IMG/VR virus record: IMGVR_UViG_2534681675_000018
Span: 1 to 11,212 of that record
Length of the DNA stretch: 11,212 bases
Direction: 5' to 3' (one strand)
Source of the DNA: a virus
Lineage: Duplodnaviria > Heunggongvirae > Uroviricota > Caudoviricetes
Below are positions 1 through 11,212 of this stretch, piece by piece; position 1 is the stretch's first letter, and every line of letters starts with the position of its first letter. Under the pieces are notes generated by a model. It was not told where the DNA came from and did no database searches. It worked only from the letters and a program-made list of their open reading frames with translations. A program made the translations under genes and the position numbers.

Positions 1-435
1 GTGTTTTTTAGTCCATCTTTAAATATTTTTGTGAATCCTGCGCTTAAGGATGACTACATCAATGTAAATTCATGGCCAGATGATGCTGTTGAAGTTGATG
101 AGCAGGTGTATATTGAGTTTTCCGGATTACCGCCGAAAGGAAAAATCCGTATCGCTGGGGAAAATGGTTTTCCTGCATGGTCTGAAATTCCACCACCAAC
201 GCATGAGGAACAGATTGCCGCAGCCGAATTGAAAAAACAGCAATTGATTAATCAGTCCAACGAATATATGAATACCAAGCAATGGCCTGGTAAAGCGGCT
301 ATTGGTCGTCTGAAAGGTGAGGAACTGGCGCAATATAATTTGTGGCTGGATTATCTGGACGCACTGGAACTGGTTGATACCTCCAGTGCTCCAGATATTG
401 AATGGCCTACGCCTCCGGCAGTTCAGGCCAGATGA
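1..435 (+). CDS. tfa: Tail fibre assembly protein (Tfa, P2 gpG / Mu U-like chaperone); 5' end may lie upstream of the window
   Basis: C-terminus ...NLWLDYLDALELVDTSSAPDIEWPTPPA matches the conserved Tfa C-terminal motif and parallels the C-terminus of the convergent copy at 407..1000. ORF starts with GTG at base 1, so the N-terminus is uncertain. Stop TGA at 433..435. Confidence 0.78.
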   Translation: MFFSPSLNIFVNPALKDDYINVNSWPDDAVEVDEQVYIEFSGLPPKGKIRIAGENGFPAWSEIPPPTHEEQIAAAELKKQQLINQSNEYMNTKQWPGKAAIGRLKGEELAQYNLWLDYLDALELVDTSSAPDIEWPTPPAVQAR

Positions 436-1000
436 CATCCGGCGCGGTGCTCGTATCTGTTGCCGTCACCGCGTCAATGTAATCAAGCACGGCGTTAAGC
501 CGGGTGGTTTCTGCCTGCGTCAGCTTCCGCCCGGCCTGTAATTTCAGCTGAATCAGACTGATGGAAGCCATTGCAGCATCAATCAGTGACTGGCGCTGTG
601 CTTCTGCCGCTTCTACTGCGGCACCGTGTTGTGCCTCAGTATCTGTCACCCATTTCTCACCATCCCATTTATCGTATGGCGTTAACGGTGAAAGCGTGAC
701 ATAACCGTCTTTGATGGCACCGATATAATCCACTGTAACAGCAGCACCATTTTCGATTGAGTAAACAGTCTCATTGCGATGGTCTTCTTCATGGCTCCAT
801 CCCTTACCTGTAAATACTGCCACTCTTCCCGGAATGTTTTCGCCAGGGTCAATACCAGTTGAACAGGCGGGCATACTTACGCCAGTATTAATATATTCAT
901 CAGACCAGCCCGTATACTCAGATGTTTCAGCATCATAATAAAAACAACGCATATCACCCGGCACTGTAGCCAGCCCATTTTCATCAAAAACAGGTTTCAT
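407..1000 (-). CDS. tfa: Tail fibre assembly protein, alternate copy (Tfa') inside the invertible segment
   Basis: 197 aa ending ...LNAVLDYIDAVTATDTSTAPDVIWPELPEA (conserved Tfa C-terminus). Convergent with and overlapping the 3' end of the plus-strand tfa by 29 nt. Its ATG overlaps the TAA of the upstream fibre cassette by 1 nt (TAATG), implying translational coupling. Confidence 0.85.
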   Translation of the reverse strand: MKPVFDENGLATVPGDMRCFYYDAETSEYTGWSDEYINTGVSMPACSTGIDPGENIPGRVAVFTGKGWSHEEDHRNETVYSIENGAAVTVDYIGAIKDGYVTLSPLTPYDKWDGEKWVTDTEAQHGAAVEAAEAQRQSLIDAAMASISLIQLKLQAGRKLTQAETTRLNAVLDYIDAVTATDTSTAPDVIWPELPEA

Positions 1001-1506
1001 TATGCAGCCCTCACAATATAATTAAAGGCGATGTTACGTGGACGGTTTTCATTAGCTGTTGGCACGACACGAGAGGCGTCGAATCCAAGGTCATCGGTTT
1101 TGTCTATAGTAGTTGTGTTATTCGGCATTCTCGCTGATCGTGTTCCTGCATCGTAAAAAGCCCCTCTGATTGCATCAAAAGACATACCGATCCCGCCATC
1201 TGCGAATCCCTCAATATTTCTTATTGCATCCCCCTGTGAAGATAATAATTGTCGCCCGGCATCCACTCCACGTCCGTCATCCCAGCCACGAATAAATTCA
1301 CCGCGTAAATCAGGCAATTTATTTTTCGGATAAACCTTTGCCAGTTCCGGGTATTCTTCAGCAGAAAAAGCCGCACCGTTGCATTTCAGCCAGCCAGTAG
1401 GCGGTGTGGCTGAAGGCCACGGAACAGGCACACCAACGGGTAATGCTGAACCTTCTCCCAAACCAACGTTTAAGAAAATGCAGAGATTACGGCTAACTGG
1501 CATCAT
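1000..1506 (-). CDS. Alternate tail-fibre C-terminal (receptor-binding) cassette, promoterless in this orientation
   Basis: Gly-rich sequence with ...GVPVPWPSATPPTGW..., as I recall for variable C-terminal parts of Mu S/S', P1 S and e14/Rac Stf side fibres. No own promoter or RBS context; lies between tfa' and the invertase; contains a gix-like site near its 5' end. The first ATG reported by the ORF track is probably not a real start; the frame would be joined to a constant fibre N-terminus after inversion. Confidence 0.7.
   Translation of the reverse strand: MMPVSRNLCIFLNVGLGEGSALPVGVPVPWPSATPPTGWLKCNGAAFSAEEYPELAKVYPKNKLPDLRGEFIRGWDDGRGVDAGRQLLSSQGDAIRNIEGFADGGIGMSFDAIRGAFYDAGTRSARMPNNTTTIDKTDDLGFDASRVVPTANENRPRNIAFNYIVRAA
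1453..1478. other. Candidate Gin/Hin/Pin-type recombination (crossover) site
   Basis: TTCTCCCAAACC AA CGTTTAAGAAAA: two 12-bp imperfect inverted half-sites around a central AA. By eye about 19/26 identical to hixL (TTCTTGAAAACCAAGGTTTTTGATAA) and similar to gixL, both recalled from memory. Sits at the invertase-proximal edge of the alternate fibre cassette, where Mu gixR / e14 pix sites lie. Confidence 0.45.
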
Positions 1507-1533
1507 CCCCGGTTTTTATTCAGGGGATCCATC

Positions 1534-2133
1534 ATGCTTATTGGCTATGTCCGCGTATCAACAAATGACCAGAATACAGAATTGCAGCGTAACGCGCTGG
1601 AGTGCGCAGGATGTGAACTGATTTTTGAAGATAAAATCAGCGGAACGAAATCAGCCAGACCGGGATTGAAAAAACTGATCAGAACGCTATCAGAAGGAGA
1701 TACGCTGGTTGTCTGGAAGCTGGACAGACTGGGCAGAAGTATGAAACACCTGATCACGCTTATTGAGGAATTGCGGGAAAAAGGTGTTAATTTCCGTAGT
1801 CTGACGGACAGCATTGACACATCAACACCCATGGGGCGTTTCTTTTTTCACGTCATGGGGGCTTTAGCCGAAATGGAACGTGAATTAATTGTAGAGCGTA
1901 CACTGGCCGGGCTGGCGGCAGCGCGCGCACGGGGGCGCATTGGCGGACGTCGCCCGAAGTTGACAAAAGAACAACACGAGCAAATAGCGAGGCTGATTAA
2001 AAACGGTCATGACAGGAAACAACTGGCGATCATTTACGACATCGGCATATCGACGATTTATCGTTATCACCCTGTAGGCGATATACAGGCTGAAGAAACA
2101 ACCAGGCAGACTCAGGAAAATGAAAACCGCTAA
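1534..2133 (+). CDS. Serine DNA invertase (Gin/Hin/Pin/Cin family)
   Basis: 199 aa beginning MLIGYVRVSTNDQNTELQRNALECAGCE...VVWKLDRLGRSMKHLI...FRSLTDSIDTSTPMGRFFFHVMGALAEMERELI..., near-identical in motif content to Mu Gin as I recall it. Catalytic Ser in the RVS motif at residue 9; C-terminal HTH (GISTIYRY). SD AGGGGA 6 nt upstream of the ATG. Confidence 0.95.
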   Translation: MLIGYVRVSTNDQNTELQRNALECAGCELIFEDKISGTKSARPGLKKLIRTLSEGDTLVVWKLDRLGRSMKHLITLIEELREKGVNFRSLTDSIDTSTPMGRFFFHVMGALAEMERELIVERTLAGLAAARARGRIGGRRPKLTKEQHEQIARLIKNGHDRKQLAIIYDIGISTIYRYHPVGDIQAEETTRQTQENENR

Positions 2134-2152
2134 TCTGACCATTAGCGGTTTT
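2123..2152. terminator. Bidirectional hairpin between convergent invertase and gpU genes
   Basis: Perfect 12-bp inverted repeat AAAACCGCTAAT / ATTAGCGGTTTT separated by 6 bp (ctgacc), with A-run on one side and T-run on the other, so it can act as an intrinsic terminator in both directions. The invertase TAA stop (2131..2133) lies inside the left arm. Confidence 0.45.
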
Positions 2153-2159
2153 GCGTTAA

Positions 2160-2654
2160 TCAAAACAGCCCTTTAACGGAGCTGGCCGCGCTGTTAAGGG
2201 ATGATGTGACCTTATCTTTGAAGCCGGACAGCATATCGCTGAACGATGAGGATTGCAGGCGCTCCCGCAAATCCTCATCACAGCGTTCAAGGGTCAGTGA
2301 AAATTCTATCTTTTTCGCCTTACCGTAGCGATCAAACTCGGAGCGGGTCGTATTCGTTCCGGTCAGGACATACATGCCGTAAATCTGCCCGACACCATCA
2401 ATCAGAGGCCAGGGGCGTCCTGTATATGCCTGCGTGGTCAGCAACGAAAGCGATACTTCGCCACCTGTAATTTCAGGATAAAGCACACCAGAAAGAACGA
2501 TGCGATCATCGCCTGCCCCGATATACTGCCAGCTTGCTGAACGGTTAACGCGTTCATTTTTCACATGCCGCCAGCTTTTGTTTTGCTGTAACTGCTGATG
2601 CGGCAATGTGCGCAGCTCAAAAACAAACATGCCGTAGATCATCATCATGGCCAT
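2160..2654 (-). CDS. U: P2 gpU-like tail protein
   Basis: 164 aa, M(A)MMMIYGMFVFELRTLPHQQLQ... resembles the N-terminus of P2 gpU family tail proteins. Immediately downstream of the tape measure on the same strand (T stop 2661..2663, GAGGAG SD in between). True start may be the third ATG (2648). Confidence 0.75.
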   Translation of the reverse strand: MAMMMIYGMFVFELRTLPHQQLQQNKSWRHVKNERVNRSASWQYIGAGDDRIVLSGVLYPEITGGEVSLSLLTTQAYTGRPWPLIDGVGQIYGMYVLTGTNTTRSEFDRYGKAKKIEFSLTLERCDEDLRERLQSSSFSDMLSGFKDKVTSSLNSAASSVKGLF

Positions 2655-2660
2655 GACTCC

Positions 2661-5498
2661 TCAATCTTTATCGTAAAAACTGCCACGCCCGGCACGGGCG
2701 CGCCGTTCCATTTCTGCCCTGACCATTTCACCGACCAGTTTCGCCAGTTCGCGGGGATTCTGCGTAACAACGTTATGCAGATGAACATGAATTTCACCGC
2801 CAAATCCGGAGACAACAGGCTCCCGGTTACGGGAAGTTGCAGGAACTGATGCCACTGGCGATCGTATGGCCTCCGCCACCGGGCGGGAGCTGGCCGCAAC
2901 AACAGGGACCAGCGCCGGAGGCAGAGGAGTCGGGACCACGGGTGTGATGTTGATTGCGGAAGCTGGCTTACTGATCTGCGCAATCTTCCGCTCCTGCCAC
3001 TCCCCACGAACAGCAAGTGCGCGGGGCAGGTTCTTAAAGACAATATCGCCGGGGCCAATGCGTTTTTTCGTCTCATCAACCAGCTTACCTGTGTTATCAG
3101 CAATTTTGCTGAGTCTGCGTAGCGTACCGGTATTGCTGTCTGTGAGCGGTTTGTTGTCTTTGGGTTTATCACCTCCGGTGCCATTTTCCACAGGCTTCGG
3201 CGGATTGATTTTCGCCAGGTCCCCCTGAAGCAAGGCAACCTTGTCCTGAAGAATGGCCGCACGCTGTGCGTCTTCGATTTTCTTTCTCGCCCTTTCCGCT
3301 TCATCCGGAAGCACACCGAGTTTTTCAAGTATCCACGCCAGCGTATCCAGCAGCATTTTTGCAGGCGTCAGAACAAGCTGTAGCGCGCCACCAAGAACGT
3401 TACCGAATATCTCGCCAGCACTGGTACATTTATCCAGCGTTTCCTTGCTGGACTCCATCGGTGACAGCAGCGATTTAAACCAGTTAAAGAGCTGAATAAT
3501 CCCATCGCGCACGACATCAAAAACAGGACCAAACCGTTCAAAGGTTTCGCGCAACGGAGCCAGCCGTTCCATAATCCCACTGAACACCCCGGCATAAAAC
3601 GCCTTGATGGGTTCCCAGTATTTCCAGATGAGAACCGCCGCAGCCACAAACGCGGCAACAATCAATCCGACCGGACTGAACAGCGCCCCGATAGCGCCAC
3701 CCAGCAACGAGATGGAACCTGTTACCATTCCCCATAGTGCTGGCAGCACCCTGACGACATTCATTGATCCGGTCAGGAGAGAAAAACCAAGACGTAACGT
3801 GGCCAGTTTCCCGTGAAGCACGCCAATAACCAGCGACAACGAGCCAATCGTTGCAGTCATTGCCAGCAACGCACCGCCTGCTATCAGTAGCTGGCGCGTC
3901 AGTGCCGGATGGGCCTGCGCCAGCGCCGTCACCCTTGATACCACCCGCGTGAGCCACTGCGTGACAGAACGCAGCGGGCCGTCAATCAGATCTGCAATGC
4001 GGATGCGCAACCCTTCCCATGCACTGCCGAGTGATTTCAGATCGCCATCAAGGTTGTTGGCCATAACCTTTGCCGTGCGTTCAGCCTCACCGCGTGCGCC
4101 TTCAAGTTCTTTTCTCAGTTTGGGTAAGGAACCGTCACCTGCCGCATCAACGAGGGCCATAAACGATGTGAAAGCCTCTTCCCCGGCGATGTCCTTAAAG
4201 AAGGATACCCGGTCAACTTCCCCGTATTTGCGGGTGGCTTTATAAAGGTCGGCCAGCACATCCTCCATCGGGCGCATTTTGCCGTTCGCGTCAGAAACTG
4301 CCACACCAAGCTCTTTCAGCGCCTCTGCTGCTGCCTTTGGCGGTGATGCCAGACGAGCCAGGCTGGCACGCATTGCCGTCCCGGCATCACTCCCTCTGAT
4401 ACCCATATTCGCCAGCACGCCCGCCATCGCTGCGGCCTGCTCCAGCGATATTCCCAGCTTACCCGCCACCGGACCTGCATATTTCATGGTTTCGCCCAGT
4501 GCGCGAAGGTCAGTGTTGGTACGGGTAAACGCTGCGGTGAGTGTGTCACCAACCCGGTCCATCTGGTCAGCAGAAAGGCCGAACTGCGTCAGGATATTTG
4601 AGCCAATATCCGCCGTCTCGCCGAGATCCATGCCGCCAGCCGTTGCCATGCTCAGCACGCCCGGAAGCGCAGCCTGAATGGCCTGCGGTGTGAAGCCAGC
4701 CATTGCAAGAAATGCCTGTCCACTGGCGGCATCGCCTGCGGTGAACTGCGTTTCAGAGCCAAGTTTTAACGCCTGCTCACGCAGCGCCTTAAACTGTGGG
4801 CTGTTCTGGTCGATTCGCGTCAGTGCCTGAACGCGGGACATCTCTTTCCCGAACCCGATCGCAGGCTGCAAAAAACGCCCGGCAGCATAGCCGCCAGCCG
4901 CTGCCGCACCAATTGCCAGCGCACCACCTGTTTTCAGTTTTCCAGCAGTTTCCTGCGCGCGCGAATACCGCTCACGCGCCCGCGTTACACGCGCAAGCGT
5001 CTGCCGTTCGCGTTCAAGCTGGTTGTTGTACTGTTCGGTGCGTCTGATGGCCTGCTGGATGGTGTTATCGCTGCCTGTCAGGGAAATGCCGTGGCGTTTC
5101 AGCTCTCCGCCAAGCTCCCGCATTTTCTGAATTTCCCGTGTGCGCGATTCATTCAGGCGTTCAAGCCGGGTGCTTAACTGCTGCATCAGCTTTTGTTGTT
5201 TTTCGCTGAGCACTGTACCCGTGCGTTGTAACTGATTAAGGGCGTTAAGCTGGCGTCGTGCTTTCACGATGCTCGCATCCGCTTTACTGACAGCGTCACG
5301 GGCGCGCTCAAATGAACGCGCCTGACGCTCGAGATTTTTGATCGCCCCCTGCGTTCGCTGGATGGAGTCACCAAACTGCCCCATCAGGCGGCGGGCGTTT
5401 TCGGCAGGCCGGGTCAGCCTGTCAACGGCGCTGAAAGCGACCCGGATATCAAGAGTCTTCATTGTCTGCATTCCCGCTGCGAAGTGCCGCCCGCTCAC
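2661..5498 (-). CDS. T: Tail tape measure protein (P2 gpT-like)
   Basis: 945 aa with coiled-coil-rich N-terminal third (repeated Q/R/E/L heptad-like stretches), Gly/Ala-rich central region and hydrophobic segments, typical of tape measure proteins. Position after the E/E' chaperone pair and before gpU. GTG start at 5498 is the longest option; ATG at 5471 or 5462 are alternatives. Confidence 0.9.
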   Translation of the reverse strand: MSGRHFAAGMQTMKTLDIRVAFSAVDRLTRPAENARRLMGQFGDSIQRTQGAIKNLERQARSFERARDAVSKADASIVKARRQLNALNQLQRTGTVLSEKQQKLMQQLSTRLERLNESRTREIQKMRELGGELKRHGISLTGSDNTIQQAIRRTEQYNNQLERERQTLARVTRARERYSRAQETAGKLKTGGALAIGAAAAGGYAAGRFLQPAIGFGKEMSRVQALTRIDQNSPQFKALREQALKLGSETQFTAGDAASGQAFLAMAGFTPQAIQAALPGVLSMATAGGMDLGETADIGSNILTQFGLSADQMDRVGDTLTAAFTRTNTDLRALGETMKYAGPVAGKLGISLEQAAAMAGVLANMGIRGSDAGTAMRASLARLASPPKAAAEALKELGVAVSDANGKMRPMEDVLADLYKATRKYGEVDRVSFFKDIAGEEAFTSFMALVDAAGDGSLPKLRKELEGARGEAERTAKVMANNLDGDLKSLGSAWEGLRIRIADLIDGPLRSVTQWLTRVVSRVTALAQAHPALTRQLLIAGGALLAMTATIGSLSLVIGVLHGKLATLRLGFSLLTGSMNVVRVLPALWGMVTGSISLLGGAIGALFSPVGLIVAAFVAAAVLIWKYWEPIKAFYAGVFSGIMERLAPLRETFERFGPVFDVVRDGIIQLFNWFKSLLSPMESSKETLDKCTSAGEIFGNVLGGALQLVLTPAKMLLDTLAWILEKLGVLPDEAERARKKIEDAQRAAILQDKVALLQGDLAKINPPKPVENGTGGDKPKDNKPLTDSNTGTLRRLSKIADNTGKLVDETKKRIGPGDIVFKNLPRALAVRGEWQERKIAQISKPASAINITPVVPTPLPPALVPVVAASSRPVAEAIRSPVASVPATSRNREPVVSGFGGEIHVHLHNVVTQNPRELAKLVGEMVRAEMERRARAGRGSFYDKD

Positions 5499-5987
5499 GC
5501 CAGCTAACCACTTCGCCGGGCGTCATCATGAAGATTTCGGCGGGCGACCAGTTAAAAATGGCGGCGATATCTGCCACCAGATCTTCGATGTGCTCAAAGC
5601 ACACCAGGGTGATTACGCTGCCGTCTCCTGCACGCTCTTCGCGCCAGAGTCTGGCTCGCTCATAAAATTTACAGCCACAGCGCACAACTGAATAAAATCG
5701 CGTGACGACATTTTTTTAATCATCACTTCATCCAGTCGTGGCGAGGTCACGCGAGGCAACAGCGTGAACATGGTATCCGCTTTCAGATTCAGCACATCAG
5801 ACAGCGACAGACCACGCAGGGATCCAGCCTGTTCAATAGCCCCGGTGATCTCCACATACGTGATTTTTTCGCCACCACGCTCAATTGGTCGGGTCAGTTT
5901 TACGCCACGTTCGACAGCCATATCCTCACCTGCCGTCACATCATCCACCACGGTGTTATTCCGGGTTTCAGTATCGATGTCTTTCAT
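5449..5987 (-). CDS. Predicted E+E' fusion chaperone made by programmed -1 ribosomal frameshift (E codons 1-92 joined to the -1 frame ending at 5449)
   Basis: The -1 frame relative to E has no stop from the A7 run at 5711..5717 down to 5449 and overlaps the tape measure start. This matches the conserved tail-chaperone frameshift architecture (lambda G/GT, P2 E/E+E'). Confidence 0.55.
5613..5987 (-). CDS. E: Tail assembly chaperone (P2 gpE-like)
   Basis: 124 aa ORF directly between the tube gene and the tape measure, with AAGGAG SD 6-7 nt upstream of the ATG at 5987. An A7 run (5711..5717) lies in the coding sequence and a -1 frame is open from that point to 5449, the hallmark of the E/E+E' pair. 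Confidence 0.7.
   Translation of the reverse strand: MKDIDTETRNNTVVDDVTAGEDMAVERGVKLTRPIERGGEKITYVEITGAIEQAGSLRGLSLSDVLNLKADTMFTLLPRVTSPRLDEVMIKKMSSRDFIQLCAVAVNFMSEPDSGAKSVQETAA
5711..5717 (-). other. Putative -1 frameshift slippery site (A AAA AAA on the coding strand)
   Basis: T7 on the plus strand = A7 on the coding strand, read as AUU AAA AAA AUG in the E frame. Slipping back one base on the Lys codons reads AAU GUC GUC... in the open E' frame. Confidence 0.5.
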
Positions 5988-6042
5988 CAGTTTTCTCCTT
6001 TTCAGTCAGAGGCGACGCACTGCGCCGCCTGCATATTACTTA

Positions 6043-6555
6043 TCAGCCAAGCCCGAGCGCGGAACGGATACGGTCAGGCACAATGTCCTTGCCGTCCTTC
6101 CGGTAGATGTGGTTCAACAGGTCGATTTCCCACAGCGGGCGATCGTTAACGCTCAGCTTGTAGTAGGTGTTTTTGACAGCGTAAGTGTGTGATGTGGCTT
6201 CGCCCTGTTTGGCTTCCCCCATATCAATTTCCGTCACACGTCCGCGCATCTCGATTTCATACAGATCGCTTTCTGCATCGGTGTAGTATTCACCCGCAAA
6301 ACGCAGCAGCGTGCCGTCAATCGCGCCGCCATATTTAAGGAACAGCGCACGAACAGCTCCCCCCATGACAAAACTCGCATCAAGCGCGGAGTCGTCCAGA
6401 CCGAGATCAATACTTACCGCCCCCATCATGCCACCACCACGATAGCTGTCGGTTTTGCGCGTCAGTTTGGGCGGCGTGACGGATGTCACTTTACCCACTT
6501 CGTTTTCACCATCCACAAACAACGTAAAAAAGCGAAGATGTTTTGGTACAGCCAT
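6043..6555 (-). CDS. FII: Tail tube protein (P2 FII-like)
   Basis: 170 aa immediately downstream of the sheath gene. Sheath stop and tube start overlap (TGATG) at 6553..6557. Size and position match the contractile-tail tube protein. Confidence 0.88.
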   Translation of the reverse strand: MAVPKHLRFFTLFVDGENEVGKVTSVTPPKLTRKTDSYRGGGMMGAVSIDLGLDDSALDASFVMGGAVRALFLKYGGAIDGTLLRFAGEYYTDAESDLYEIEMRGRVTEIDMGEAKQGEATSHTYAVKNTYYKLSVNDRPLWEIDLLNHIYRKDGKDIVPDRIRSALGLG

Positions 6556-7739
6556 CAGGCACCTCCCAGCACCGCAAATGCGGGACCAAAGAATTCATCA
6601 GTAAACGTCTGGTAAAGCTCCATGTCTTCCAGCGGGGGAACAGGCGTATATTTGTAGCGAATACGCACACGTCCCTGACGTAAATTCGTGGTGCCGTTAT
6701 CCACCACGTCATACCAGCACTCCGCACCAATCAGTTTCCCGGCAGTAACCAGCGAATCCAGTTTTGCCCTGATGGCGCTGATAACATCCTTCACGTTCGC
6801 AGGTGTCAGTGGACTGTCGATGGTTTCAAACTGCGCTTCCGCAATTGAATCAGCCAGCACCTGTGCGGTTCGGGTATACACCTCAAAGATGTAGGCGTTC
6901 GTTTCCGGTGTGCGGTTGCCCCAGAAGCGGAACCCGTTGCGACGAATAATGGTCGTGATTTCTTTGTTGTTGAGGCTGTTGGCATCGCTGTCTTCGGCCT
7001 GCAACGACCAGAACACATGCCTGGACATCCCCAGCACATTTTTAACCGGAACGTTGGACAGCGATTTGTGCCAGCCCTGTTCATGGTCAATGTACGCACG
7101 AAGGCCGCACGCATAGGCAGGCGCGGGGAACGTTTCGTTTTCGCCACTTTTCGGGTTGTAGGCGATGAAGTCCGGCCATAAGAGCATCACTTCACGTTCG
7201 TTGAATTTCTGGCGGTAGGTAATCGCTTCAGCCATCGTGTTACAGCCGTGACATGAGGCATACACAAATGCGCGCAGTTTACCCGCAATCACGCACAGGG
7301 ATTTTGTCACCGCCTCCGTGTCCAGCTCCGGCGCGGCCAGAATACGCGGACGGTATCCGATGCTTTCATCCTGCTCTGCAACAAGCAGCGCATACATCCC
7401 CGTATAGCTGCCGTCATCCTCAGAACCACCGATAACCAGTTGATCCTGCGTCTTTTCGTCTTCTTCTTTGTGTTCAGCCACGCGAACGACGATCACCTTT
7501 GTGCTCACCTGGTCTGCGATGGCCTTAAGCGCACGATAAAGCGTCCCCGTTGTCCCGCATTTCCCCAGCACGTCATTGACGCGGGTCAGCAGTGTGGGCT
7601 TGTTCAGCGGGAACAGCTTCGCGTCCGCATCATCCGCCGTTGCCACGATACCGATAACGCTGGAATCAACATCGTTAATCGCTGTTACCAGGTCGGTATT
7701 TTCCGTAACACGGGCACCATGAAAACGAGTTTCACTCAT
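6555..7739 (-). CDS. FI: Contractile tail sheath protein (P2 FI-like)
   Basis: 394 aa, the size of P2 FI; first gene of the sheath-tube-chaperone-tape measure order; AAGGGG SD upstream of the ATG at 7739. Confidence 0.9.
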   Translation of the reverse strand: MSETRFHGARVTENTDLVTAINDVDSSVIGIVATADDADAKLFPLNKPTLLTRVNDVLGKCGTTGTLYRALKAIADQVSTKVIVVRVAEHKEEDEKTQDQLVIGGSEDDGSYTGMYALLVAEQDESIGYRPRILAAPELDTEAVTKSLCVIAGKLRAFVYASCHGCNTMAEAITYRQKFNEREVMLLWPDFIAYNPKSGENETFPAPAYACGLRAYIDHEQGWHKSLSNVPVKNVLGMSRHVFWSLQAEDSDANSLNNKEITTIIRRNGFRFWGNRTPETNAYIFEVYTRTAQVLADSIAEAQFETIDSPLTPANVKDVISAIRAKLDSLVTAGKLIGAECWYDVVDNGTTNLRQGRVRIRYKYTPVPPLEDMELYQTFTDEFFGPAFAVLGGA

Positions 7740-7896
7740 AGCTTCAGCCCCTTGTATCCGTTAAATGATTCAGCAACAATCATCACCCACCACGCGCGTA
7801 ATCTCACCCCTGCGCTATTCTCCCGTCACGGCGACAACAAAAAGCAGTAACCCACTCCGCACGCACATGCGACCATGCCGCACAGGGAGGGAACAG

Positions 7897-9006
7897 ATGA
7901 CCGACACCACCATGCAATTGCTCAGTCAGGGCACAGACCCCGTGAAAATGCCGGATTTTGATATTCTCGCGGAGGGTAAAACGTTGTCAGGCGTGGCAGA
8001 GCGCCTGATGAGCCTGTCACTGACCGACAACCGGGGATTTGAGGCGGACCAGCTCACCATCACGCTGGATGATGCGGATGGTCAGTTGCAGCTACCGCTA
8101 CGGGGCGCGCGCCTGACGGTTCTCATTGGCTGGAAGGGAGAACCGCTGACAGAAAAAGGCACTTACATTGTTGATGAAATCGCTCACGAAGGACCGCCGG
8201 ACAGGCTGACTGTTTCAGCCAGAAGCGCAGATTTTCGGGATGAATTTAACGTTAAACGTGAGGTGTCCTGGCATGATGTGACCATTGAGCGTGTGGTATC
8301 CGCCATCGCTCATCGGTATGGTCTGAAACCGCAAATCAGCGAAATGCTGATGGATATCGAAATCGACCACGCCGACCAGACCGAAGAAAGCGACATGTCC
8401 TTCCTTACGCGCATGGCGGAAATGCTGGGCGCAATCACCACGGTAAAAAGCGGCAATCTGTTATTCATCATGCCAGGTGGTGGCGTGAACGCACAGGGCC
8501 AGCCGTTGCCCTCGTTCGCCATTACACGCAGCAGCGGCGATCGCCATCAGTTCCGTATTGCTGACCGCGAGGCTTATACGGGGGTACGCGCCTACTGGCT
8601 TGATCTTAATTACGGGAAAAAGAAAAAAGTCAGCGTAAAACGCCGTAAACCGCCAAAACCCAAAAAGGAGAAAAGCAGCAGCCGTGAAGGTGATTATATG
8701 GAAGGCGCGGAAGGCAATGTGTTTGTGTTACGCAAGACTTATCAGAACGAGCAGGCAGCAAGACGCGCAGCGGCGGCAAAGTGGCAGCAACTACAACGCG
8801 GAGCCGCAGCGTTCTCCATCACGCTGGCGCGTGGACGTGCAGAACTCTACCCCGAAATGCATGGCACGGTAACAGGATTTAAAAGCGAGATTGATAATCA
8901 GGACTGGATCATTGCAAAAGCCGAGCACACCATTGATAACAGTGGCTTTACCACGCAGCTTGAGCTTGAAGCAAAAATCCCGGAATGGATAGCAGAAACA
9001 GAGTGA
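7897..9006 (+). CDS. D: P2 gpD-like tail protein (late control gene D family)
   Basis: Start chosen at ATG 7897 (MTDTTMQLLSQGTDPVKMPDFDILAEGKTL...) because it has a strong SD AGGGAGG 6 nt upstream. The upstream part of the track ORF (7765..7896) is low-complexity and not protein-like. About 369 aa, the size of gpD, and followed directly by ogr as in P2. Confidence 0.85.
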   Translation: MTDTTMQLLSQGTDPVKMPDFDILAEGKTLSGVAERLMSLSLTDNRGFEADQLTITLDDADGQLQLPLRGARLTVLIGWKGEPLTEKGTYIVDEIAHEGPPDRLTVSARSADFRDEFNVKREVSWHDVTIERVVSAIAHRYGLKPQISEMLMDIEIDHADQTEESDMSFLTRMAEMLGAITTVKSGNLLFIMPGGGVNAQGQPLPSFAITRSSGDRHQFRIADREAYTGVRAYWLDLNYGKKKKVSVKRRKPPKPKKEKSSSREGDYMEGAEGNVFVLRKTYQNEQAARRAAAAKWQQLQRGAAAFSITLARGRAELYPEMHGTVTGFKSEIDNQDWIIAKAEHTIDNSGFTTQLELEAKIPEWIAETE

Positions 9007-9048
9007 GCAACTTAGAATAGCGGCAGCACCACGTTAAGGGAGGTCGCT

Positions 9049-9309
9049 ATGTTCCGTTGTCCGCTTTGTGGCGCATCTGCCCGTATCCGCACCAGTCGTC
9101 CGGAAAATGATTCAAACACCGTGCGGCAAAAGTATTACCAGTGTAACAATCTGGAATGCGGCGTATGCTTCTCAACACTGGAAGCTTTCCATAAATTCAC
9201 ATCGAAACATGCCTCCGGCGTTCACTCTTCAGAAGGTATCCCGTGGCATGAGCTGCCAGCTTCACACAGGGGAAACAATCAGATGAGCTTGCCTTTATCT
9301 CAGAATTAA
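9049..9309 (+). CDS. ogr: Ogr/Delta-family zinc-finger late transcription activator
   Basis: MFRCPLCGASARIRTSR...YYQCNNLECGVCF... has the C-x2-C-x22-C-x4-C arrangement and the MFxCPLC N-terminus of P2 Ogr. SD AAGGGAGG 5 nt upstream. Confidence 0.85.
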   Translation: MFRCPLCGASARIRTSRPENDSNTVRQKYYQCNNLECGVCFSTLEAFHKFTSKHASGVHSSEGIPWHELPASHRGNNQMSLPLSQN

Positions 9310-9318
9310 CAGGCAGAA

Positions 9319-9347
9319 TTGCCGGAGTAACAAAAAAGCGATAGATT
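9319..9347 (+). promoter_or_regulatory. Candidate sigma70 promoter for the Hok-like toxin transcript
   Basis: TTGCCG - 17 bp - TAGATT immediately after the ogr stop. The predicted transcript 5' end (about 9352..9356, GCGCGGGUGCC) would give a roughly 400-nt RNA ending at the 9720..9744 hairpin, the size class of hok mRNAs. Confidence 0.3.
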
Positions 9348-9369
9348 ACGCGCGGGTGCCTTTCGGCTG

Positions 9370-9633
9370 ATGGTCGGAGGGAATACCCGAAGGCCGGATG
9401 TGGAAAGGCCCCGGAAAACATTTCTGTTTAACCGAGGCCCTAACCGCATTACCTTGACAAGTGAAAGGTTAGCGCCTCTCCGGAAAAGGAGCAAGTGCTA
9501 TGTCGCAAAAATCGCTTACGGCCATCACGTTCTGCGTGACGGCAATCCTCATCATCTGGATGCTGCATGGTTCGCTGTGCGAAATACGGATGAGCTTCTG
9601 GGGAGCGGAGTTTGCGGCGTTCTTACAGTGTAA
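9370..9633 (+). CDS. Possible mok-like overlapping reading frame (modulator of toxin translation)
   Basis: Open frame starting upstream of the toxin ORF, overlapping almost all of it and ending 7 nt before its stop, the same geometry as mok/hok. Protein is low-complexity, so it may only serve translational coupling. Real start uncertain (ATG 9370 or GTG 9400). Confidence 0.3.
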   Translation: MVGGNTRRPDVERPRKTFLFNRGPNRITLTSERLAPLRKRSKCYVAKIAYGHHVLRDGNPHHLDAAWFAVRNTDELLGSGVCGVLTV

Positions 9634-9640
9634 GCAGTAA
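9500..9640 (+). CDS. hok: Hok/Gef-family type I toxin (46 aa small membrane protein)
   Basis: Not in the ORF track (below 60 aa). ATG 9500 with SD AAGGAG 8 nt upstream; TAA at 9638..9640. Protein MSQKSLTAITFCVTAILIIWMLHGSLCEIRMSFWGAEFAAFLQCKQ has an N-terminal hydrophobic helix with C-V-T-A-I and C-terminal SLCEIR...E.AAF, matching Hok (...KSLCEIRYRDGHREVAAF...). Confidence 0.65.
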   Translation: MSQKSLTAITFCVTAILIIWMLHGSLCEIRMSFWGAEFAAFLQCKQ

Positions 9641-9719
9641 GGAAACCGCGACGGGGGAGCAATCCCCCGTCAATCGGTTGCCAGGGTATGGTCGAAGTGG
9701 CACCCAAATTTAAATTGAG

Positions 9720-9744
9720 GCCCACCAGTAAGAGTGGTGGGTTT
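9720..9744 (+). terminator. Weak hairpin/terminator at the 3' end of the toxin transcript
   Basis: CCCACCA gtaagag TGGTGGG followed by TTT; flanked by palindromic AAATTTAAATT-type repeats. Confidence 0.3.
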
Positions 9745-9775
9745 AACGCTTATTTAAATTTGAAAGGAACTCTTT

Positions 9776-10078
9776 ATGAGTGAAATGGTATTTTGTCGCG
9801 GATGCGGCAAGGAAATACATAAAGATGCCACATCCTGCCCCAATTGTGGAGCACCTCAAAGAACAGCAAGTTCAAAAAGCAGAATGACAGCCGCACTACT
9901 GGCTTTCTTTTTAGGTGGTCTTGGTGCACACAAATTTTATTTAGGTAAAGTGGGGCAAGGATTCCTTTACCTTATTTTTGCTGGACATTCATTCCGGCAA
10001 TCGTGGCATTTATTGAGTTTTTTATCTATCTATGCACCTCTGATGAAGACTTTGCCCGCAAATATGGCTAATGCCTAG
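9776..10078 (+). CDS. Zinc-ribbon / TM2-domain membrane protein, with apparently frameshifted C-terminus
   Basis: N-terminal CRGCG...CPNCG zinc ribbon, then LLAFFLGGLGAHKFYLGK (TM2-domain-like first helix and GAH+FY motif). After the T5 run at 9975..9979 the -1 frame encodes a clean second helix and acidic tail (CWTFIPAIVAFIEFFIYLCTSDEDFARKYG, stop 10069..10071), whereas the in-frame continuation (AGHSFRQSWHLLSFLSIYAPLMKTLPANMANA) is not helix-like. SD AAAGGA 7 nt upstream of the ATG. Confidence 0.7.
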   Translation: MSEMVFCRGCGKEIHKDATSCPNCGAPQRTASSKSRMTAALLAFFLGGLGAHKFYLGKVGQGFLYLIFAGHSFRQSWHLLSFLSIYAPLMKTLPANMANA

Positions 10079-10097
10079 TGGGCGAATCAGAATGACA

Positions 10098-10131
10098 AAC
10101 CCGCAGCATAAAAACTGCGGGTTTTCTTTTT
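10098..10131 (+). terminator. Rho-independent terminator downstream of the TM2 gene
   Basis: AAACCCGCAG cataaaaa CTGCGGGTTT followed by TCTTTTT: GC-rich 7-bp stem (extendable by A-T pairs) plus a U-run. Confidence 0.75.
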
Positions 10132-10155
10132 GTCACCCTCACAAATGAGGGTAAC
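10132..10155. promoter_or_regulatory. Near-perfect palindrome (possible operator or second terminator hairpin)
   Basis: GTCACCCTCA caaa TGAGGGTAAC: 10-bp arms matching 9/10, 4-bp spacer, directly after the terminator U-run and upstream of the GATC dyad. Confidence 0.3.
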
Positions 10156-10175
10156 ACCACTCATAAGTAATAGGC

Positions 10176-10229
10176 ATAACAGATCGATGCAATAAATCCG
10201 ATCGATAAAAACGATCGATTTGTTATCAT
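10176..10229. promoter_or_regulatory. Dyad-symmetric element with three GATC (Dam) sites overlapping a -10-like hexamer; putative methylation-sensitive operator/promoter of the com-like operon
   Basis: GATC at 10182..10185, 10200..10203 and 10213..10216, each within GATCGAT. Outer arms ATAACAGATCGAT (10176..10188) and ATCGATTTGTTAT (10214..10226) are inverted repeats (12/13), with the symmetry centre on the middle GATC. TATCAT -10-like hexamer at 10224..10229 overlaps the right arm; com-like start codon is about 35 nt downstream. Confidence 0.45.
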
Positions 10230-10263
10230 ATCGGCAGCAGTAACCACACAAGAGGTGCCGCAA

Positions 10264-10461
10264 ATGACGCAAAATGTACGATGCAAAAATTGCAACAAAC
10301 TACTTGCCCGCGCCTCATTTCACTACATTGAAATAAAATGTCCGCGCTGCAAAACACTTAACCAGATAACGAGAGCCATCGAGCACCCCACACACATGAG
10401 GAGTTATGACCGTGGGGATCGCAATCCAGCACCAACCAGCACATACACCGGAACACACTAA
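10264..10461 (+). CDS. com: Com-like zinc-finger translational regulator
   Basis: MTQNVRCKNCNKLLARASFHYIEIKCPRCKTLNQITRAIEHPT... closely parallels Mu Com as I recall it (MKSIRCKNCNKLLF...HIEIRCPRCK...EHPT), including the four-Cys zinc finger. ATG 10264 preferred over the track's GTG 10255 (SD AGAGG 8 nt upstream). The 3' end overlaps the methyltransferase start by 56 nt, as com overlaps mom. Confidence 0.75.
   Translation: MTQNVRCKNCNKLLARASFHYIEIKCPRCKTLNQITRAIEHPTHMRSYDRGDRNPAPTSTYTGTH
10386..10417 (+). promoter_or_regulatory. Predicted RNA stem-loop sequestering the methyltransferase SD and start codon
   Basis: CCCCAC (10386..10391) pairs with GTGGGG (10412..10417). The 20-nt loop contains GAGGAG (10398..10403) and the ATG at 10406; a fourth GATC sits at 10417..10420. 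Analogous to the translation-inhibition stem of the Mu mom mRNA that Com relieves. Confidence 0.35.
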
Positions 10462-11212
10462 GGTTTATCAGACTGACAATGCCACGCTCTGTCGTGGGAA
10501 TGCGCTGGAAATATTGCCGCTGATTGAGCCAGAAAGCATTGATGCCTTAATCACTGACCCGCCTTACAGTTCGGGTGCGACACACAAGGCCGGACGCACC
10601 AACCAAGGCAGCCATGCAAAATATCTGAACGGCGAGAACCTTCACCGCTTTGATGGGTTCGCGGGTGAAAACATGGACGCCCGTTCGTGGGCTTACTGGA
10701 CACAATTATGGATGGCACAGGCACACCGCGCAGTCAGGCCGGGCGGTTATGCCCTGGTATTTACTGACTGGCGACAACTACCAGCTTTAACCGATGCGTT
10801 TCAGGCCAGCGGCTTTACATGGCGCGGCATCATTGCGTGGAACAAGGGGAGGGGGTCACGAACACCCCATACGGGGTATTTCAGGCATCAGTGCGAATAC
10901 ATCGTCTGGGGCAGCAAAGGCCATTTAGATAAATCGCCTTCGGGGCCGTTCGACGGCTGCATGACGTACCCGGTTATCCCGTCAAAGAAAATGCACCCGA
11001 CCGGAAAACCAGAAGAACTAATGGCGGAACTGGTCAGGACTGTGAATAGTGGCGGAACAGTCCTTGATCCTTTTATGGGGTCAGGGACAACGGGTGTGGC
11101 TGCACTGAAAGCAGGGCGAAAATTTATTGGTATAGAAACCAGTGATCATTATTTTGAGGTAGCAGCGCAGCGGCTTCGGGGGACTATTACCACAACCATT
11201 TCGGCTACATAA
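10406..11212 (+). CDS. DNA methyltransferase, beta-class amino-methyltransferase (N6-adenine or N4-cytosine; DPPY motif)
   Basis: 268 aa with catalytic motif IV LITDPPYSSG near the N-terminus and AdoMet-binding motif I (LDPFMGSGTTGVAALKAGRKFIGIE) near the C-terminus. This motif order defines the beta group. Start at ATG 10406 or GTG 10412; stop TAA is the last three bases of the window. No restriction endonuclease partner in the window. Confidence 0.9.
   Translation: MTVGIAIQHQPAHTPEHTKVYQTDNATLCRGNALEILPLIEPESIDALITDPPYSSGATHKAGRTNQGSHAKYLNGENLHRFDGFAGENMDARSWAYWTQLWMAQAHRAVRPGGYALVFTDWRQLPALTDAFQASGFTWRGIIAWNKGRGSRTPHTGYFRHQCEYIVWGSKGHLDKSPSGPFDGCMTYPVIPSKKMHPTGKPEELMAELVRTVNSGGTVLDPFMGSGTTGVAALKAGRKFIGIETSDHYFEVAAQRLRGTITTTISAT

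Follow-up and report, generated by a model that had tools for sequence, protein, structure and literature searches.

A mosaic cargo end with a Mu-like com–methylase operon in a P88-like P2-type prophage

Modules between ogr and the attachment site

We analysed positions 9310–11212 of an 11,212-nucleotide (nt) stretch of viral DNA (IMG/VR record IMGVR_UViG_2534681675_000018), the whole of which we refer to as the window. Its open reading frame (ORF) map, Pfam matches and database matches identify the window as the right arm of a P88-like (Xuanwuvirus) P2-type Escherichia coli prophage. The part studied here holds a hok toxin gene, a zinc-ribbon/TM2 gene and a com gene overlapping a DNA methyltransferase (methylase) gene; these four genes had been named in an original prediction made from the letters of the sequence, and Pfam recovers all of them in their places. 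We think it likely that this is the cargo end of the prophage, a mosaic of three modules lying between ogr, the last late gene, and the right attachment site, attR, and that the hok, TM2 and com–methylase modules were acquired separately and act separately.

The left boundary is ogr (9049–9309, plus strand), encoding the late transcription activator, which matches Pfam Ogr_Delta at 52.4 bits, is annotated in relatives and is the last conserved late gene ahead of the cargo genes. On the right, near-identical E. coli prophages (99.9% over 9000–11212) have the methylase as their last phage gene, followed by a terminator and then by the host gene raiA; the terminator of the com–methylase operon sits just outside the window. 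Homology to the host, judged against prophage-free genomes, starts ~100 nt past the methylase stop codon, which places attR ~100 nt beyond the window end. The gene order in the relatives and the start of host homology therefore identify the region as the ogr–attR interval, and the earlier expectation that this position leads toward attP and int was correct. The region was also rightly called accessory, since in P2 itself ogr, its terminator and attP lie within ~100 nt, with no genes between the ogr terminator and attP, and since the region varies among P88-like prophages.

The three modules are distributed separately. Among 5,426 complete E. coli genomes, D–ogr–hok (counted at a coverage of at least 80%) is present in 759, the com–methylase operon in 183, the TM2 cassette in 94 and the TM2–com junction in 83. 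All combinations are found: hok alone, hok with com–methylase, hok with TM2, and all three. Past position 9705, relatives carry nothing (ST131, MS198-1, O103 and M10), five other genes (P88_4B11), com–methylase only (phage Chuche), TM2 only (O158:H23), or both, and com–methylase is seen without TM2 in Chuche and in 28 of 34 IMG/VR contigs. Because of this distribution, we take the units to be independent modules.

A six-way alignment places two insertion points in the region. Point A lies directly after GGCACCC and is empty in ST131, O103 and Chuche; it holds the TM2 cassette in the window and in O158:H23, and a different five-gene cargo in P88_4B11. The point directly after the hok mRNA end is a site of recurrent recombination in P88-like prophages. 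Point B lies past the backbone terminator and a small hairpin, at about 10160, and is followed either by the attachment site and host DNA or by the com–methylase operon. The backbone terminator, found by a terminator scan, is an intrinsic terminator of the form AAACCCGCAG-N8-CTGCGGGTTT with a T run (10097–10132, also given as 10097–10124; plus strand). It is kept in the Chuche, ST131, O103 and O158 relatives, whether or not TM2 or com is present, and several genomes, among the matches listed, match only this 38-nt terminator stretch, at 100% identity; because it is present in relatives without TM2, we assign it to the hok backbone. The small hairpin on its 3' side, TGTCACCCTCA/TGAGGGTAACA (10131–10156), was found by repeat search and alignment and is present in some relatives and not in Chuche. 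Matches to Rfam MicC and BSnc120 at 10014–10171 were dismissed, as they fall on the terminator and the small hairpin and lie far below their gathering scores. Terminator-like matches in the region number 8, compared with 3.1 ± 2.1 expected, a modest enrichment.

Base composition also differs between the modules. The tail genes (2160–9006) have a G+C content of 54.8%, which is matched by the hok unit (9354–9706, 55.2%) and by the methylase (53.3%). The TM2 cassette (9707–10096) has 41.3%, with a fraction of 0.34 at third codon positions, and the com leader (10097–10263, 167 nt) has 41.9%, both lying below the lowest 390-nt segment of the tail genes (48.7%). The region had been described as compositionally distinct from the tail genes, and this holds for the TM2 cassette and the com leader but not for the hok unit or the methylase. 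In a similar way, the idea of an island of horizontally acquired cargo stands for TM2 and com–methylase, and their presence in a minority of related prophages supports the view that they are horizontally exchanged cassettes, but it does not fit hok.

The hok module (9319–9706) appears to be a type I toxin–antitoxin locus of the hok/mok/sok type. The toxin gene (9500–9640, plus strand) matches Pfam HOK_GEF at 29.9 bits (cut-off 22) and PHROG 251 (1e-22), and matches NCBIfam HokA at 34 bits, under the cut-off of that model. A further ORF (9370–9633, plus strand; in-frame starts at 9370, 9400 and 9454) overlaps nearly all of hok in another frame and, by analogy with the hok/mok/sok organisation, would act as mok. 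The predicted full-length mRNA (9354–9706, plus strand; 353 nt) shows a fold-back type of closure in which its 5' end, GGGUGCCUUUCGGCU, pairs with its 3' end, GGUCGAAGUGGCACCC: GGCACCC (9699–9705) and the bases preceding it pair with the 5' end from 9354, and a 15-base-pair 5'–3' helix is part of the minimum-energy fold (−159.3 kcal/mol, z = −6.6, with 0 of 100 shuffles as stable). A promoter-like site (TTGCCG-17-TAGATT, 9319–9347, plus strand; 8/12 in the promoter scan) predicts a transcript start near 9354, a position that would fit the mRNA 5' end engaged in this pairing. A second hok allele is found at the same place in related phages (2460–2830 of another phage locus), with 50% protein identity. 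This divergent allele keeps nearly identical ends of the 5' and 3' untranslated regions, and a one-sided G-to-A change preserves the pairing. It is because of the closed mRNA, the conserved untranslated ends in the divergent allele, the overlapping mok-like frame and a sub-threshold sok match that we favour a hok/mok/sok-type assignment. Like hok/sok (parB) of plasmid R1 and chromosomal or prophage hok loci, the module combines a Hok/Gef ORF with a mok-like frame overlapping it, a long mRNA closed 5' to 3' and a conserved leader that matches the Rfam sok region below the gathering score. In contrast to them, its toxin is shorter (46 amino acids, aa) and the locus occupies the end of a prophage, with attR or cargo immediately after it.

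In P88, P88_4B11, 500465-2, PhiR44_2 and others, similarity runs through ogr and hok at 93–98% and ends at 9705, the 3' end of the hok mRNA. Furthermore, hok is the sole gene between ogr and attR in ST131, MS198-1, O103:H2, DA33133 and M10, which represent four different integration sites. We therefore regard hok as what seems to be a near-fixed part of the phage lineage and not as variable cargo: it travels with ogr at 95–100% identity within the lineage, has a tail-like G+C content and is often the only gene before attR, the kind of pattern that the original prediction had itself named as speaking against its reading. The locus most likely stabilises the prophage, with the long hok mRNA presumably kept translationally closed by the 5'–3' pairing, and may also contribute to the exclusion of other phages.

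The TM2 cassette (9707–10096, plus strand), delimited by alignments with relatives, appears to be an AT-rich insertion exactly at the hok mRNA 3' end, between it and the backbone terminator. A repeat search identified at its left edge a perfect 11-nt inverted repeat, CAAATTTAAAT/ATTTAAATTTG (9705–9762), flanking a GC hairpin (9720–9742). Among the relatives compared, O158 has this repeat, with 6 nt duplicated in the loop of the GC hairpin, and Chuche, ST131 and O103 lack it; it may represent a leader structure, an insulator terminator or the scar of a recombination event. The zinc-ribbon/TM2 gene itself (9776–10078, plus strand; Pfam TM2 at 56.6 bits plus a zinc ribbon) is frameshifted, which had escaped the original prediction. 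The T run at 9975–9979 has five T residues compared with six in relatives, a 1-nt deletion that throws the gene out of frame within the second membrane helix. When aligned with the intact 98-aa gene, it has this helix and the C-terminus swapped for out-of-frame sequence, and the Pfam match spans only profile positions 2–40 of 51, so that the TM2 domain in the window is incomplete.

The intact, longer form with six T residues is present in all 95 matching records, which are from complete E. coli genomes, and the intact gene is 97–100% identical in 91 of the 94 genomes carrying TM2. The exact frameshifted product of 100 aa was found on 9 contigs, and the 8 places listed belong to 8 different sequencing-run accessions, all of them the same prophage at raiA. 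Because of this recurrence, the five-T allele is real and not a one-off error, being either a true lineage variant or a recurrent homopolymer slip. The intact product would be a small zinc-ribbon/TM2 membrane protein, probably inactivated here by the frameshift. Its only phage relative with more than 50% identity over most of the length is in Escherichia phage BUCT618, and searching the literature for what TM2-domain proteins might do in phages gave nothing usable.

The com–methylase operon and its proposed control elements

The third module (10182–11212) has the features of a copy of the Mu com–mom control cassette in which Mom has been replaced by a beta-class methyltransferase. The com gene (10264–10461, plus strand) encodes a zinc-finger translational activator of 65 aa that matches Pfam Zn_ribbon_Com at 44.5 bits and PHROG 13819, is 60% identical to Mu Com over 42 aa, the zinc-finger part, and overlaps the methylase start (10406/10412). 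Within com lies a Com-binding RNA motif, GAGAGCCAUCGAGCACC (10371–10387, plus strand), which is an exact match to the consensus GAGNNCC(N)2-3GAGNNCC obtained for Com by systematic evolution of ligands by exponential enrichment (PMC6483171). The motif is unique in the window on both strands, with 0.028 occurrences expected by chance. Directly 3' of it, RNA folds predict a translation-inhibition hairpin (10386–10417, plus strand), formed by CCCCAC (10386–10391) and GUGGGG (10412–10417), that encloses the Shine–Dalgarno (SD) sequence GAGGAG (10398–10403), an AUG at 10406 and a GUG at 10412.

These elements are conserved beyond the window. The Com motif stands at the same place in com operons with other effectors, and the same motif and hairpin arms occur in com operons driving Mom, a 75%-identical N6 methylase or a C5 cytosine methylase. 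The com-driven effectors start at the GUG of the 3' arm, and the codons GUG GGG AAC are common to unrelated enzymes. At IMG/VR loci L041, L052 and L071 (about 3100–4200), the effector behind the cassette of com, motif and hairpin is Mom in some phages and, in others, a C5 cytosine methyltransferase.

The methylase gene (10406/10412–11212, plus strand) ends at the last base of the window and matches Pfam N6_N4_Mtase (PF01555) at 116 bits. Its motifs ITDPPYSS, with the catalytic DPPY, near residue 50, and FMGSGTTG, the S-adenosylmethionine (SAM) motif near residue 222, are in the beta order, and the closest solved structures are of the DpnA type and CcrM, and also MboIIA and RsrI; from these features it is probably an N6-adenine enzyme. 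The SD sequence is 2 nt from the AUG at 10406 and 8 nt from the GUG at 10412. Because of the 8-nt spacing, the GUG start of other com-driven effectors and several independent gene calls of 266 aa, the GUG is likely to be the real start, giving a protein of 266 aa. In PADLOC only generic methyltransferase profiles match the enzyme (MTase_II, 213 bits). Identity with M.EcoGII or M.EcoGI was rejected on size, 349 aa versus 266–268 aa, the comparison being with the published description (PMC5778455), and membership of the non-specific Hia5/Hin1523 family was likewise rejected from its published description, that family being Dam-like (PMC3299994) and the enzyme here N6_N4 beta. A paper on the O145 methylome held no information on the com-linked methylase.

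Upstream of com are three GATCGAT sites (10182, 10200 and 10213, together 10182–10219), a putative Dam-methylation/OxyR control region that includes three of the four ATCGAT sites of the window. They are spaced 18 and 13 nt apart, exactly like the three GATC sites ahead of Mu Pmom, with ~75% identity over the aligned regions, and the Mu sites place transcription under the control of Dam and OxyR (PMC3378877). The core CGATCG-N7-(C/A)GATCGAT is invariant in the window, Mu mom, the K-12 agn43 regulatory region and other com operons. Across 46 distinct com upstream regions, the GATC pair lies 51–52 nt before the com start in most non-Mu-type loci and 77–78 nt before it in Mu-type loci. The predicted promoter of the operon (10202–10229, plus strand) consists of a −35 element TCGATA, a 16-nt spacer and an extended −10 element TGtTATCAT (9/12 in the promoter scan, with TG), and overlaps the second and third GATC; here, as in loci of the L070 type, a recognisable −10 hexamer stands at a distance of 7 nt from the last GATC. 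By-eye inspection upstream of com showed no P2 Ogr-type late promoter (TGT-N12-ACA). The region also resembles the OxyR/Dam phase-variation switch of agn43 (flu), with its three-GATC region and the core CGATCG-N7-CGATCGAT. The spacing there is 19 and 13 nt (positions 165–207 of the K-12 agn43 upstream region) compared with 18 and 13 nt here, and the com triad overlaps the −35 element and spacer of the predicted promoter.

The likeness to Mu, where com and mom are regulated by Com, Dam, OxyR and C (PMC3378877, PMC6483171), extends through most of the cassette. Both have a zinc-finger Com overlapping the effector start, three GATC sites at the same spacing, a position at the end of the phage genome and a CC(N)3GAG motif for Com binding immediately 5' of a hairpin containing the effector ribosome-binding site and GUG start. 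In contrast, the effector here is a SAM-dependent methyltransferase of the beta class (N6_N4_Mtase) and not an acyltransferase-type Mom; Mom (PF25680) is found in other com loci and not in the window. The carrier is P2-type and not a transposable phage. The Mu segment that holds the activator-C site, the T run and the weak −10 of Pmom has no counterpart in the window, and the predicted extended −10 promoter is 27 nt closer to com, with correspondingly less sequence between the last GATC and com.

The exchange of Mom for a methyltransferase has precedents. In Mu-like prophages (FluMu Hin1523, Pnm1 Nma1821 and Hia5) and in phage B3 (ORF47/48), a com homologue is followed by an adenine methyltransferase at the mom position, described as an anti-restriction modification (PMC3299994), and the com-linked methylases of Mu-like prophages are thought to be broadly anti-restriction and silent in lysogens (PMC3299994). 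Hia5, Hin1523 and Nma1821 are however Dam-related (alpha-type) with almost no sequence specificity, whereas the enzyme here is N6_N4 (beta) and is carried by a P2-type phage.

Taken together with Mu, these elements suggest how the operon might work. Transcription would start from the extended −10 promoter, under probable Dam/OxyR control through the three overlapping GATC sites. Com would be translated first, bind GAGNNCC(N)3GAGNNCC on the mRNA and open the adjacent hairpin that hides the ribosome-binding site and start of the methylase, making methylase translation dependent on Com. In line with the established role of Mom, and with the one proposed for the com-linked methylases of FluMu, Pnm1 and B3 (PMC3299994), the methylase would then modify the DNA of the phage, and probably of the host, allowing progeny to escape restriction in new hosts. 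The earlier suggestion of a tightly regulated modification enzyme is supported by a probable control region more elaborate than first seen, with its GATC triad, Com motif and hairpin.

Alternative readings of the region

The original prediction raised the possibility that toxin, membrane partner and modification enzyme form one cooperating phage-carried defence or anti-restriction system, and the genes are indeed neighbours on one strand, in a part of a temperate phage genome that accepts cargo. Plasmid R1 hok/sok has been reported to exclude T4, and membrane effectors are common in abortive-infection systems. However, the modules occur in every combination and mostly apart, and none of hok, TM2, com and ogr is hit by a PADLOC model, leaving a generic methyltransferase with no restriction partner. 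TM2 is frameshifted in the window and in the other runs with this allele, with com–methylase intact. The transcription signals also argue for separate units. Each unit had been credited with a promoter and a terminator of its own, which holds in part: hok has a promoter-like site and an mRNA closed by 5'–3' pairing, com–methylase has a predicted extended −10 promoter and a terminator beyond the window end, and TM2 has only a weak promoter-like site (7/12) and is followed by the terminator of the hok backbone, the element that separates it from com. We consider such a joint system very improbable, the distribution of the modules already largely refuting it. It is harder still to believe that the methylase is the surviving half of a restriction–modification system in a decayed defence locus. 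The best PADLOC matches are methyltransferase profiles of type II restriction–modification, and some databases name the methylase after DpnIIB, but neither the window nor any of the relatives examined has an endonuclease ORF next to it, it stands directly before the terminator, attR and raiA, and it is coupled to com like other com-driven modification enzymes; we rejected a restriction–modification reading for want of a nuclease partner and because of this position. Nor does the region look like decaying junk, an AT-rich patch with short ORFs at the end of a defective prophage, even though TM2 is frameshifted and some relatives have pseudogenes among their tail genes. The hok, com and methylase genes are intact, each 100% identical to proteins on ~1,000 contigs, the isolated phage Chuche carries the same com–methylase cassette, the cis-elements are conserved across divergent com operons, and TM2 is itself well conserved in nearly all of the genomes with an intact copy, all of which makes decay very unlikely.

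The reading of the com–methylase operon that competes most directly with late anti-restriction is that it is expressed in lysogens as a Dam/OxyR ON/OFF switch, like agn43 and P22 gtr, and acts as an epigenetic regulator of the host instead of, or besides, its late role. Its triad has the same core as agn43 and overlaps the −35 element and spacer of a near-consensus extended −10 promoter, and the requirement for Mu C is missing; the Mu mutation tin7, a single change giving Pmom an extended −10, frees that promoter from its need for an activator (PMC3378877). A Mu-type GATC/OxyR triad fused to such a promoter might make com–methylase heritably phase-variable in lysogens, in which case the prophage methylase would rewrite the host methylome in a subpopulation and pre-protect phage DNA against restriction. 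On the other hand, related methylases of prophages, among them M.EcoGI/II and the FluMu enzymes, stay silent in lysogens (PMC5778455, PMC3299994), the elaborate Com control suggests a product that is harmful if mistimed, and the promoter is itself a prediction. We therefore regard both the switch and the heritable phase variation it would bring as unlikely.

Several points weigh against our preferred reading of three separate modules with a Com-controlled anti-restriction methylase. What we say about the expression and activity of the island genes comes from sequence. Promoter-like matches in the region, at 1 observed versus 2.8 expected, are not above chance, and the predicted promoter at 10202–10229 is a consensus match. 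No covariation could be obtained for the hairpin, as its arms are invariant in all 43 distinct sequences, and their conservation could partly reflect coding, with the 5' arm encoding the Com tail EHPT. In contigs L037–L039 the whole GATC triad has been lost while the −10 region, com and the methylase are kept; these natural variants may be deregulated. Since the C site and weak promoter of Mu are not conserved, the timing of expression may differ from that in Mu, and expression could occur in lysogens. The methylase could also be sequence-specific and regulatory rather than anti-restriction. At the hok locus, the match to Rfam sok (RF01794; 9354–9513, plus strand; 46.2 bits, E 1.3e-8) does not reach the gathering score of 59, and a minus-strand scan for a Sok antisense promoter found none with at least 7/12 matches.

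Overall, the region is an ordinary mosaic cargo site with annotated genes rather than a novel joint defence system. RefSeq and phage Chuche already have annotations for all of its genes, and both com with a methyltransferase replacing mom in Mu-like prophages and cargo sites in P2-like phages are documented. The defence hotspots of P2-like phages (Rousset et al. 2022, PMC9122126; PMC13586616) are similarly variable cargo sites in E. coli P2-type prophages, with cassettes exchanged between similar phages. Their described positions, however, are the interval from gpA to gpQ, the tail genes and the surroundings of int, the ogr–attR end not being among them, and the cargo after ogr here is not a recognised defence system. 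We came across no account in the literature of a Mu-type cassette carried by P2-type phages, or of a GATC/Com-motif/hairpin signature shared across three effector types. The Mu com–mom control cassette thus appears to be a portable module of GATC sites, Com, Com motif and start hairpin that is not confined to Mu-like phages and stands before at least three unrelated kinds of DNA-modifying enzyme: Mom, an N6 methylase of the beta class and a C5 methylase. Its signature offers a means of finding tightly regulated phage DNA-modification genes whose products are probably harmful if mistimed. With com–methylase in ~3% of complete E. coli genomes, its expression could affect restriction barriers and methylome studies.

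Neighbouring genes in the window and related loci

The remainder of the window, described from the ORF map, Pfam and database matches, begins with tail-fibre segments and a DNA invertase (1–2133), where an invertase of the Cin/Gin type adjoins alternative tail-fibre and assembly segments; long inverted repeats were looked for in this part and none was found. In strain 89-3156, the place of the invertase and tail-fibre genes (1–1999 of its locus) is taken by a macro-domain protein and a serine O-acetyltransferase. The tail genes U, T, E, FII and FI follow on the minus strand (2160–7739), running opposite to D (7897–9006, plus strand) and ogr, whereas in P2 T, U, D and ogr are co-directional. 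Relative to P2, the block from U to FI is inverted, as is typical of P88-like phages.

For gpD, the longest ORF begins at 7765, but RefSeq relatives put the start at a position corresponding to 7897 or further downstream; some annotations of relatives call just an 800-nt VgrG-like fragment. In strain M10 (locus positions 3770–4721), two hypothetical genes are inserted between gpD and ogr, which points to another cargo site in P88-like prophages. In the O158:H23 locus (1–3400), ogr–hok–TM2 adjoins Ail/Lom and lambdoid-looking tail-fibre genes, suggesting a mosaic or decayed prophage that carries the same right end at raiA.

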